Assembly: GCF_003018255.1 (NCBI RefSeq)
Contig: NZ_CP027440.1
Length of the DNA: 64,000 bases
Strand: one strand, 5' to 3'
From: Escherichia coli
Lineage (GTDB): Bacteria > Pseudomonadota > Gammaproteobacteria > Enterobacterales > Enterobacteriaceae
Under the pieces are notes generated by a model. It was not told the origin of the DNA. It worked only from the letters and a program-made list of their open reading frames with translations, and ran no database searches. The position numbers and the translations under genes were made by a program. Positions within the stretch are counted from its first letter, which is position 1, and every line of letters starts with the position of its first letter. Shown here piece after piece: positions 43,599 to 46,481 of the stretch.

Positions 43599-44546
<948 letters not shown>

Positions 44547-44785
44547 TTAACGACCTCAATTCCACGGGATCTGGTGGCGTTTAAAGTGTGTGGGCATTTT
44601 ACGGGAAGGTTACATTACTGTAAACATGATTAAATTCCTGTTACTTGGATTTGGCTTACAGGTCACATATGTTGCAAAACATATCAGGTTGATTTTAAGA
44701 AGCTGTTGCAAAAGGGCGTTATAACAAAAGGGGAGTGCAGAAGGAGTCTGGGCGGGCAATTGGTATAACCAATGCGAAATAAAAC

Positions 44786-44804
44786 AATTATTTAACAAAT
44801 AATT
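44786..44804. promoter_or_regulatory. AT-rich palindrome in the cyoA upstream region (candidate regulator binding site)
   Basis: aattattt-aac-aaataatt: 8-bp inverted arms around a 3-bp spacer, about 240 bp upstream of cyoA; the adjacent AATAATTATCATTA resembles a Fur-box-like AT hexamer array. Confidence 0.3.
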
Positions 44805-45005
44805 ATCATTAAGGTGACAACTGGGTAGTGGGAAAATAAAGACTCATTAGCTGAATCGTGTAAGAAAAATAGAATTCATAAATGGCGTCAATAATTTCCA
44901 GACGCTAAGCCGCACAAAAGAACAAATATTAATAAGCGATGCTGATGTTTATTTAGCCGTAATAATTACGGCGAGTGATTACTACGGCTAAATAATATTT
45001 ACAGA

Positions 45006-46481
45006 TTACGTCAGATGCGTTTTTCGTAGCGCCAGATAATCCAGTAAACCACCAAGCACGACGCCAGAAAGGGCGACTAAAACCCCGACTTCCAGCAGAG
45101 CAGGCAGGAAAGAGAAGTGCGTCAAATCCAGCGCGTCCATCGTCAACAGCAGTAACCACACGGCCAACAGGCTGACGCCCGCCGCCAGTGTCCACATGGC
45201 AAAGGCATAACCTGCCGGATATTCGGTACGGGAGATAAAGTTATCATTTACTCGTGTATATTCAAGCGTCTGGCGACAAACCAGCAGCAAGATAAGCCCT
45301 GGTACGGCAGCGGCGACGGAGAATAGATAGAATGTCGACCAGCCGTGTGCTTCAACAAACCAACCCGCCACGGGGCCGACATAAACTCGCCCTACAGCAG
45401 AAAGCGCTGAGAGCAGGGCAAATTGAGTAGCGGAAAATGACTTATTACACAGCGTCATTAACAGCGCGACAAAGGCTGATGTACCCATCCCGCCACAGAG
45501 GTTTTCGAAAAAGACGGCTGCGCCCATGCTGTAGAGATGCTTATCAGTAATCGACAGCAGCCAGTAACCGGCGTTAGATGCACCTTGTAAAATGCCGAAA
45601 ATCAGCAGTGCACGGAACAGCGACAGGCGCTGCATCAAAATCCCACCGTACAATGCGCCAACAATGGTCGCCAGTAAGCCAAGCGTTTTGTTAACCACGC
45701 CTACTTCACCCGCATCAAACCCGACGCCGCGAATCAAAAACGTGGTTGTCAGGCTCATAGCGAATGCGTCGCCCAGCTTATACAGCACGATAAGAAGCAA
45801 AATAAGCCAGGCATTATTGCGACCAAAGAAATCTCGCAGAGGTGCAACAACCGCTTGTTCCAGCGTTTTGGGCACAGGAATGGTGTCGGTGGGTTCTGGT
45901 GCAAGCAACGTCGCGATAATACAGGGGATCAACAGCGCCGCCATCAACCAGTACATGCCCTGCCAGCCCAGCCATTTATCTGCCAGCCACAGGGCTAAGC
46001 CGCCGGAAACCAGCATCCCTAAACGGTAACCCAGCACGCTGATTGCCGCGCCCGCACCACGTTCTTCTGCCGGGAGCACATCGGTTTTCCACGCATCGAA
46101 GACAATATCCTGGGAGGCAGAGCAAAAAGCGATCACCACCGCCAGTGCCGCCATCCAGCGGAGCTGGGTGCCTGGTTCGAGAAAACCCATCGCCGCAATG
46201 GCGACTAATAACAGAATTTGCGTGGCGAGCAGCCAACCGCGCCGCCGCCCGAAAAATGGGGGCGTGTAGCGGTCCATCAGTGGTGACCAGAGGAATTTAA
46301 AAACGTAAGCCTGGCCTACCAGAGAGAAGAAACCAATGGTTTTGAGATCGATATTCTCGACCGTCATCCAGGCCTGTAAGGTGCCGGACGTCAGGGCGAG
46401 CGGTAGCCCGGAAGCAAAACCCAGGATCAGCAATATGGCTGAACGCGGCTGTTGAAAAATACGTAAATATTGACTGGACAT
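45006..46481 (-). CDS. ampG: Muropeptide (anhydromuropeptide) permease AmpG (491 aa)
   Basis: MSSQYLRIFQQPRSAILLILGFASGLPLALTSGTLQAWMTVENIDLKTIGFF... Confidence 0.96.
   Translation of the reverse strand: MSSQYLRIFQQPRSAILLILGFASGLPLALTSGTLQAWMTVENIDLKTIGFFSLVGQAYVFKFLWSPLMDRYTPPFFGRRRGWLLATQILLLVAIAAMGFLEPGTQLRWMAALAVVIAFCSASQDIVFDAWKTDVLPAEERGAGAAISVLGYRLGMLVSGGLALWLADKWLGWQGMYWLMAALLIPCIIATLLAPEPTDTIPVPKTLEQAVVAPLRDFFGRNNAWLILLLIVLYKLGDAFAMSLTTTFLIRGVGFDAGEVGVVNKTLGLLATIVGALYGGILMQRLSLFRALLIFGILQGASNAGYWLLSITDKHLYSMGAAVFFENLCGGMGTSAFVALLMTLCNKSFSATQFALLSALSAVGRVYVGPVAGWFVEAHGWSTFYLFSVAAAVPGLILLLVCRQTLEYTRVNDNFISRTEYPAGYAFAMWTLAAGVSLLAVWLLLLTMDALDLTHFSFLPALLEVGVLVALSGVVLGGLLDYLALRKTHLT

Follow-up and report, generated by a model that had tools for sequence, protein, structure and literature searches.

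The ampG-cyoA spacer of Escherichia coli: a multi-regulator cyoABCDE promoter and a probable ampG-sense RNA hairpin

The spacer and the closest described systems

Direct-repeat operators of ArcA-P, known among others from icdA, sdhC and cydA (Park et al. 2013), are AT-rich, carry two or more 10-bp elements of the TGTTA type (four at cyo) whose centres lie 11 bp apart, are occupied in vivo under anaerobic conditions, and lie upstream of carbon-oxidation or respiration operons strongly repressed by ArcA. The cyoABCDE operon belongs to this group. It was up 64.9-fold upon arcA deletion, and three ArcA ChIP-seq peaks were reported upstream of it, corresponding to about positions 44567, 44712 and 44791 of the window, the 64,000-nt stretch of E. 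coli DNA analyzed here (Park et al. 2013, PMC3798270). The strongest cyo peak, 'cyoA3' (enrichment about 18-20), was predicted to contain a site with four direct repeats, TTGTCACTCTAATGATAATTATTTGTTAAATAATTGTTTTATT, at U00096.2 451066-451108, the repeats scoring 0.6, 7.2, 12.7 and 6.1 bits (Park et al. 2013, PMC3798270).

At the 3' ends of genes, stable stem-loops without U tract mark the steady-state 3' ends of Rho-terminated mRNAs and shield these against PNPase and RNase II; rut sites lie just downstream (Dar and Sorek 2018, NAR). Other hairpin-forming elements found in such positions are the intrinsic terminators, which close an operon right after its last gene, and the REP/BIME elements, extragenic palindromes in 3' UTRs that could block 3' exonucleases.

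We have investigated the 459-bp spacer between ampG and cyoA (positions 44547-45005), whose flanking genes are both on the minus strand:

43599-44546, minus strand: cyoA
45006-46481, minus strand: ampG, stop codon at 45006-45008

An initial annotation had assigned both genes correctly and was right in placing a redox- and iron-controlled cyo promoter between them. It also pointed to an AT-rich palindrome and to a nested inverted repeat close to ampG as candidate operators, the latter alternatively as the ampG terminator. All palindrome sequences that it quoted were confirmed at their coordinates. In our analysis, the spacer likely combines two unrelated things, the multi-regulator promoter of cyoABCDE and a hairpin in the ampG-sense RNA.

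All 459 bases were 100% identical with those of strain 2014C-3338, and the spacer was found once per genome in 5424 of the 5426 complete E. coli genomes. RefSeq annotation, including that of K-12, had zero features in it. For comparison, ampG-cyoA spacers were collected from 80 Enterobacterales genomes, and those of 25 Enterobacteriaceae were aligned; across taxa the spacer was collinear throughout. Published coordinates were converted by subtracting 407064 from NC_000913.3 positions and 406288 from U00096.2 positions, the latter verified by placing published site sequences on the window.

The cyoABCDE promoter and its ArcA operator

The cyoA-proximal 270 bp of the spacer are the known multi-regulator cyoABCDE promoter. 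The following features were recognized in this part:

44589-44624, minus strand: cyoA sigma-70 promoter, TTTACA, 17-nt spacer, TAAAAT (hexamers 44624-44596), the sole promoter-like site in a consensus scan
44596-44627, plus strand: proximal ArcA site 'cyoA1', -38 to -7, overlapping the core promoter (Park et al. 2013, PMC3798270)
44758-44774, unstranded: PdhR box AATTGGTataACCAATg, 13/14 match, unique in the window
44778-44820, minus strand: distal ArcA-P operator 'cyoA3', four direct repeats with 11-bp spacing, -231 to -189 from the TSS
44786-44804, unstranded: AT-rich palindrome AATTATTT-AAC-AAATAATT, with perfect 8-nt arms (44786-44793 and 44797-44804) and AAC as spacer
44795-44813, minus strand: Fur-box-like sequence CTTAATGATAATTATTTGT, overlapping the ArcA site
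44850-44863, plus strand: Cra-like site GCTGAATCGTGTAA

The cyoA TSS, calculated from the site coordinates of Park et al. 2013 and their stated distances to the TSS, was placed at 44589, leaving a 43-nt leader, and agreed with the sigma-70-like promoter found by scanning. The published 'cyoA3' coordinates map to window positions 44820-44778 on the minus strand. Only two places in the 64 kb agreed with the two-repeat ArcA consensus TGTTAATTAAATGTTA at 13 or more of its 16 positions, 44793-44808 and 44782-44797, both on the minus strand and 11 bp apart. The repeat cores in the window were TTGTC, ATGAT, TTGTT and TTGTT, at 44820, 44809, 44798 and 44787. Across the 25 Enterobacteriaceae, four cores (TTGTC, TTGAT, TTGTT and TTGT(A/T)) were near-invariant at their 11-bp spacing, while the bases between them varied. 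The 'cyoA1' block was nearly invariant in the same 25 taxa.

The AT-rich palindrome, which adjoins AATAATTATCATTA, lies at -197 to -215 from the cyoA start and spans the ArcA repeats DR2 to DR4. It is thus part of the already published distal ArcA-P operator, whose occupancy is based on ChIP-seq and motif prediction. With respect to the ArcA-P operators of icdA, sdhC and cydA there is no difference to report, the site being 'cyoA3' of Park et al. 2013 itself. Under low oxygen, ArcA-P would bind the distal site, the proximal site over the -35/-10 hexamers and the middle region, and the cyo operon would be repressed.

The palindromic appearance is another matter. Perfect 8/8 inverted repeats with arms no more than 6 nt apart were found in 6.9% of the dinucleotide shuffles of the 459-bp spacer, so that the palindrome alone is unremarkable; two such repeats were found in 1.8%. 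In the 24 other taxa, the corresponding positions were complementary at a mean of 5.1 out of 8 pairs, and 8/8 was reached in none of them. Among E. coli strains, the arms carried uncompensated polymorphisms. Because the TGT cores are kept and the symmetry is lost across taxa, the palindrome is a by-product of AT-rich direct repeats, its look explained by repeats such as AATTnTTTGTTAAATAATT being partly self-complementary. Judged from these alignments, the palindromic symmetry is incidental. The candidate operator of the initial annotation therefore stands with respect to its place, inside an ArcA-P site that is already published and marked by a ChIP-seq peak, and overlapped by a weak Fur-like box, but what matters there are the direct repeats spaced by 11 bp and not the symmetry.

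Alternatively, the AT-rich element could primarily be a Fur box, or a site shared by ArcA and Fur, at which Fe2+-Fur would repress cyoABCDE. The element resembles the 19-bp Fur box GATAATGATAATCATTATC in being AT-rich and in its hexamer-like GATAAT/ATTATC content, and it matches the consensus at 13 of 19 positions, with 0.19 such sites expected in the spacer. In the 7-1-7 inverted-repeat form the match was 10/14, with 0.59 expected. The cyoA promoter fragment was positive for Fur binding in a 1994 Fur titration assay, and in a Salmonella fur mutant cyo was derepressed, a putative Fur motif being present there. However, the match is modest, a recent ChIP-exo study detected no Fur peak at cyoA, and the conservation tracks the 11-bp ArcA repeats. 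The far-upstream location, at about -200, is also unusual for direct Fur repression. We consider a primary role of Fur possible but doubtful; the Fur-like box may add iron control to the distal ArcA site that it overlaps.

The best palindrome in the spacer is the PdhR box, which was missed in the initial annotation. It is the cyoA PdhR site listed in Table 1 of PMC7660256, and its core was invariant across the aligned taxa. The Cra-like site differs from RSTGAAWCSNTHHW at one position, a similarity at chance level for the window as a whole, and sits on a 10-nt block invariant in 25 taxa; Cra regulates cyoABCDE according to the literature. Scans with the FNR consensus (TTGAT-N4-ATCAA) and the CRP consensus (TGTGA-N6-TCACA) gave 7/10 at best, which is chance level, and no match on the core of the ampG-proximal repeat. 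The CRP match (44652-44667) is centred near -70.5, on a conserved TGTGAC. For the HprR/YedW box CATTAC-N6-GTAATG there was no match within three mismatches in the spacer; the literature places a YedW site 'within the cyoABCDE operon'. Matching to ArcA, Fnr, Fur and CRP, the check that the initial annotation had proposed and that was done here by consensus scans, thus recovered ArcA at the AT-rich element and a modest Fur match, left FNR and CRP at chance level, and brought nothing at the ampG-proximal repeat.

The hairpin downstream of ampG

At the other end of the spacer, two nested features were compared:

44949-44995, minus strand: RNA stem-loop in the ampG 3' UTR, 18+2 bp with a 5-nt loop, beginning 10 nt past the ampG TAA
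44956-44972, unstranded: inner palindrome GCCGTAAT-A-ATTACGGC, incidental

The outer inverted repeat has 21-nt arms (44949-44969 and 44975-44995) that are 90% complementary, and within them ATTTAGCCGTA (44951-44961) pairs with TACGGCTAAAT (44981-44991). The outer arms are real and longer than the initial annotation had described. The inner palindrome is confined to E. coli. It was absent from the aligned hairpins of the 19 other taxa, and as RNA it folded with -7.6 kcal/mol, compared with -22.0 for the long hairpin. As an alternative RNA fold it was rejected, being weak and not conserved, and it simply reflects the loop sequence that E. coli happens to have.

Folded as ampG-sense RNA, the long hairpin had a dG of -22.7 kcal/mol and a z-score of -8.25, and none of 200 shuffles folded as well, which places it far beyond chance. 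Its stem is mostly A-U, with a core of about 4-5 G-C pairs in 20. A reading of both palindromes as products of chance in an AT-rich spacer, without a function of their own, is consistent with the 8/8 repeat occurring in 7% of the shuffles and with the poor conservation of the AT-rich symmetry and of the inner GCCGTAAT palindrome. As an explanation of the whole it is extremely improbable, being refuted for the long hairpin by the z-score of -8.25 together with covariation, and for the ArcA repeats under the AT-rich palindrome by the published site and its conservation. It holds for the symmetry of the AT-rich element and for the inner palindrome only.

Homologous hairpins followed the ampG stop in 20 taxa, from the genera Escherichia, Citrobacter, Salmonella, Klebsiella, Enterobacter, Leclercia, Trabulsiella, Superficieibacter, Pluralibacter, Pseudocitrobacter, Atlantibacter and Kluyvera, with the consensus GCCGTTGTAATCAC-N5-GTAATTATAACGGC. 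In the alignment of these taxa, 12 of the 20 pairs changed on both sides, for example from U-A to A-U in E. coli and from C-G to A-U in Klebsiella. None of 500 shuffles reached any of five covariation measures; because the taxa compared for covariation and energy are relatives of one another, the shuffle counts and p-values should not be read as true probabilities. Paired cells made up 81% of the hairpin alignment, compared with 28-55% when the 3' partner was slid. The upper stem, UGUAAUCAC-N5-GUAAUUAUA, was invariant in sequence across about 20 taxa, and it was the lower stem that covaried.

The wobble pairs pointed to one strand. G·U pairs on the ampG-sense strand were counted in 40 cells, versus 10 cells (A·C) giving G·U on the other strand, and one G·U pair was kept in 18 of the 20 taxa. 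The sense RNA was more stable than the antisense RNA in 14 of the 20 taxa, with a median difference of -3.1 kcal/mol. Within E. coli, position 44986 is a C in the strain of the window and in about 125 of the 5424 genomes (hairpin 100% identical), and a T in K-12 and five other sampled strains. As the C is rare among E. coli, the perfect outer repeat is an allele of the window strain. With T, the sense RNA forms a U·G wobble, whereas the antisense RNA or a cruciform has an A·C mismatch. By these counts and energies, an RNA from the antisense strand and a cruciform are both disfavoured.

These results bear on the proposal that the nested repeat is a protein operator, that is, a double-stranded DNA site for a dimeric regulator of cyoABCDE, or else a cruciform-forming site, about 360-400 bp upstream of the promoter. 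A long inverted repeat within a heavily regulated spacer would suit such a role, as would the conserved sequence of the upper stem and the fairly constant distance to the cyoA ATG among taxa. The whole spacer being collinear, the distances of the hairpin to the ampG stop and to the cyoA start cannot separate the models. Against an operator, no ArcA ChIP peak was present at the nested repeat (Park et al. 2013), and matches to the ArcA, Fur, CRP, FNR, PdhR or HprR consensus did not go beyond chance. Moreover, the base changes were compensatory and did not preserve a recognition sequence, and the conserved G·U position, as well as the U·G of most E. coli, are mismatches in the symmetry of a duplex and on the other strand. 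We consider an operator or cruciform very unlikely, and the operator option of the initial annotation is not supported. The covariation and the G·U pattern point to RNA, and the ampG-proximal repeat likely acts as ampG-sense RNA and not as a DNA operator. Because the hairpin starts 10 nt past the stop codon, an RNA carrying it must stem from yajG-ampG transcription.

A dispersed repeat of the REP type was also considered and rejected. Each E. coli genome has the hairpin at a single locus, the window holds no further copy of it, and it contains no REP sequence; a second genomic 'place' reported for it was the palindrome matching itself on the opposite strand. Like the REP/BIME elements it is extragenic, palindromic, placed in a 3' UTR and potentially a block to 3' exonucleases, but it differs from them in being single-copy and in its sequence. 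The Rfam covariance models gave no match at E <= 1 in 44000-45500 on either strand. In a limited literature search we found no paper discussing the ampG hairpin and no annotation of it.

Potential roles of the hairpin

A 3' structure seems to be needed at the position after ampG as such. In the first 80 nt after the ampG stop of 75 Enterobacterales loci, the median z-score was -2.6, with 60% of the loci below -2. The control region, 150-230 nt into the same spacers, had a median of -0.3, with 7% below -2. A hairpin of -12 kcal/mol or better was found within 100 nt of the ampG stop in 61 of the 75 loci. Several of these hairpins were unrelated in sequence; some were canonical terminators with a hairpin and a U tract (loci L015, L030, L031 and L058), and many had no U tract, for example in Serratia.

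For E. coli, we weighed whether the hairpin alone stops or pauses RNA polymerase, possibly aided by NusA/NusG, and as a terminator or insulator of yajG-ampG shields the cyo region from read-through. It is very stable, lies on the sense strand 10 nt past the stop and, as intrinsic terminators do, directly downstream of the last gene of the operon; the canonical terminators at the same position in some other genera argue in the same direction. It differs from intrinsic terminators in having an AU-rich stem and no U tract, its 3' flank being ACAUCAGC, with one U in eight. The homologous hairpins of Citrobacter and Salmonella likewise had no U tract, and a terminator consensus scan gave 0 sites on both strands.

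Mapping of ampG 3' ends had been proposed along with the initial annotation, and we checked the Term-seq tables of Adams et al. 2021. Among the thresholded peaks from three conditions there was no minus-strand 3' end in K-12 451530-452393, which covers the spacer and includes 452000-452059, the position of the hairpin. As the tables are restricted to peaks above a threshold, this speaks only weakly against a 3' end there. No Rho termination region was listed in the spacer either, but the 800-nt windows of the Rho score take in the strong cyoA promoter and are uninformative. The TERMITe and SMRT-Cappable-seq supplements had no ampG entry. Of the terminator suggested initially, the ampG-sense RNA hairpin is retained, without the U tract of an intrinsic terminator and without a reported Term-seq end at its place. 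Termination by the hairpin alone is, in our view, unlikely.

Beyond the hairpin, the composition of the ampG-sense strand changes:

44745-44885, minus strand: C-rich, G-poor untranslated ampG-sense RNA, a possible Rho loading region by its composition

In 78-nt windows, the C/G ratio was 2.0-3.5 at 44885-44745 and 0.65-0.95 inside ampG. The C-rich region starts about 60 nt past the hairpin. The ampG hairpin shares with the protective stem-loops of Rho-terminated mRNAs (Dar and Sorek 2018) its stability, its nearness to the stop codon and the missing U tract, and by composition the C-rich, G-poor sequence downstream may correspond to their rut sites. In that class, the steady-state transcripts end precisely at the stem foot, read through upon bicyclomycin treatment and are shortened when the stem is absent; for ampG no such end is listed (Adams et al. 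2021), and the upper stem of the ampG hairpin is unusually conserved in sequence. By its structural and compositional features, the hairpin is a candidate and not a proven member of the class.

Since this anatomy matches the class of Dar and Sorek, we take a protective 3' stem-loop as the likeliest mechanism. RNA polymerase would continue from ampG into the untranslated C-rich, G-poor spacer, where Rho would terminate transcription. The 3'-to-5' exonucleases would then trim the transcript back to the foot of the hairpin. On the yajG-ampG transcript, the stem-loop would most likely define and protect the mRNA 3' end, and in this way may stabilise the ampG mRNA. By analogy, the hairpin most likely protects or terminates the ampG mRNA at its 3' end.

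The sequence conservation of the upper stem exceeds what a passive barrier to exonucleases needs, leaving room for a specific recognition element for a protein or RNase. The upper stem may be recognized by a 3'-UTR-binding protein such as ProQ, or by an RNase, which would set the levels of AmpG, the muropeptide permease. Or the hairpin may be a dedicated insulator, sparing the ArcA, PdhR and Cra sites of cyo from ampG read-through. Such specialized roles are speculative and, at present, rather improbable.

For the published ArcA map, our results add that the palindromic look of the distal operator is incidental in E. coli and that its repeats are kept across 25 Enterobacteriaceae. The lesson from this element is that palindromes spotted by eye in AT-rich operators may be by-products of direct repeats. 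The locus as a whole consists of a well-studied promoter region plus one unannotated, conserved and ordinary-looking 3'-UTR hairpin. The latter is a clean but small case of a covarying, strand-specific 3'-UTR stem-loop in a gene of beta-lactamase induction. Should it control the stability of the ampG mRNA or serve as an insulator of the cyo promoter, the annotation of this much-studied locus would be modestly extended.

Conserved blocks around the ArcA and PdhR sites

The alignment of 25 Enterobacteriaceae spacers between ampG and cyoA contained the following conserved blocks (window positions):

44718-44729, minus-strand sense: near-invariant block TTTTGTTATAACG
44850-44863: fully conserved 10-nt block, ACGATTCAGC in the sense orientation and GCTGAATCGTGTAA on the plus strand
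44885-44898: conserved block GGAAATTATTGACG
44909-44925: conserved block TTTGTTCTTTTGTGCGG

The block at 44718-44729 was positioned under the middle ArcA ChIP-seq peak, ‘cyoA2’ (~44712), a peak without a predicted ArcA site in Park et al. (2013). It had a single TGTTA core and was similar to half of the nearby PdhR box (44758-44774; GTTATAAC vs GGTATAACC). The plus strand of the fully conserved block, GCTGAATCGTGTAA, differed from the Cra/FruR consensus by one mismatch, a similarity which at this stringency is at chance level within the window. Regulation of cyoABCDE by Cra is stated in PMC5888115. The remaining two blocks were found between the ampG 3' UTR hairpin (44949-44995) and the ArcA site, the four direct repeats at 44778-44820.

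Hairpin alleles and RNA from inside ampG

The 5' arm of the hairpin had a C/T polymorphism at 44986. The window strain carried the C, which forms a perfect G-C pair and is the rare allele (~125 of 5424 genomes). The T, forming a U·G wobble, was found in K-12, Nissle and four other strains. In Enterobacter sp. 10-1, the conserved hairpin was separated from the ampG stop by the insertion of an additional, very G + C-rich hairpin (L018, its ampG-cyoA locus, 1981-2030).

Within ampG itself, Adams et al. (2021) detected a very strong Term-seq 3' end on the minus strand, at K-12 position 452393 (window 45329). Their northern blots confirmed ‘ampG int’, an abundant RNA of <100 nt from within the ORF, for which they favoured an origin by RNase processing. 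This internal 3' end, or the ‘ampG int’ RNA, may be the reason for the few reads in the ampG 3' UTR.

Spacer variants in other genomes

For strain EC529 (NZ_AP039439.1), the match to the spacer was split over two separate places, the best one having 54% coverage, which suggests an insertion inside its ampG-cyoA spacer. One spacer copy was carried by a plasmid record. The spacers of Photorhabdus and one MAG (L068-L074 and L079 among the loci compared) were ~1350-1425 nt long and presumably contain extra genes.

In the interval from GTAAC to the -35 hexamer (~44640), most Enterobacteriaceae (L006, L008, L009 and others) had 11 additional bases, a ACACnnnnnCTG-like stretch missing from E. coli, Citrobacter and Salmonella. 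Eleven bases correspond to one helical turn, so that the whole set of upstream sites is moved a full turn with respect to the promoter.
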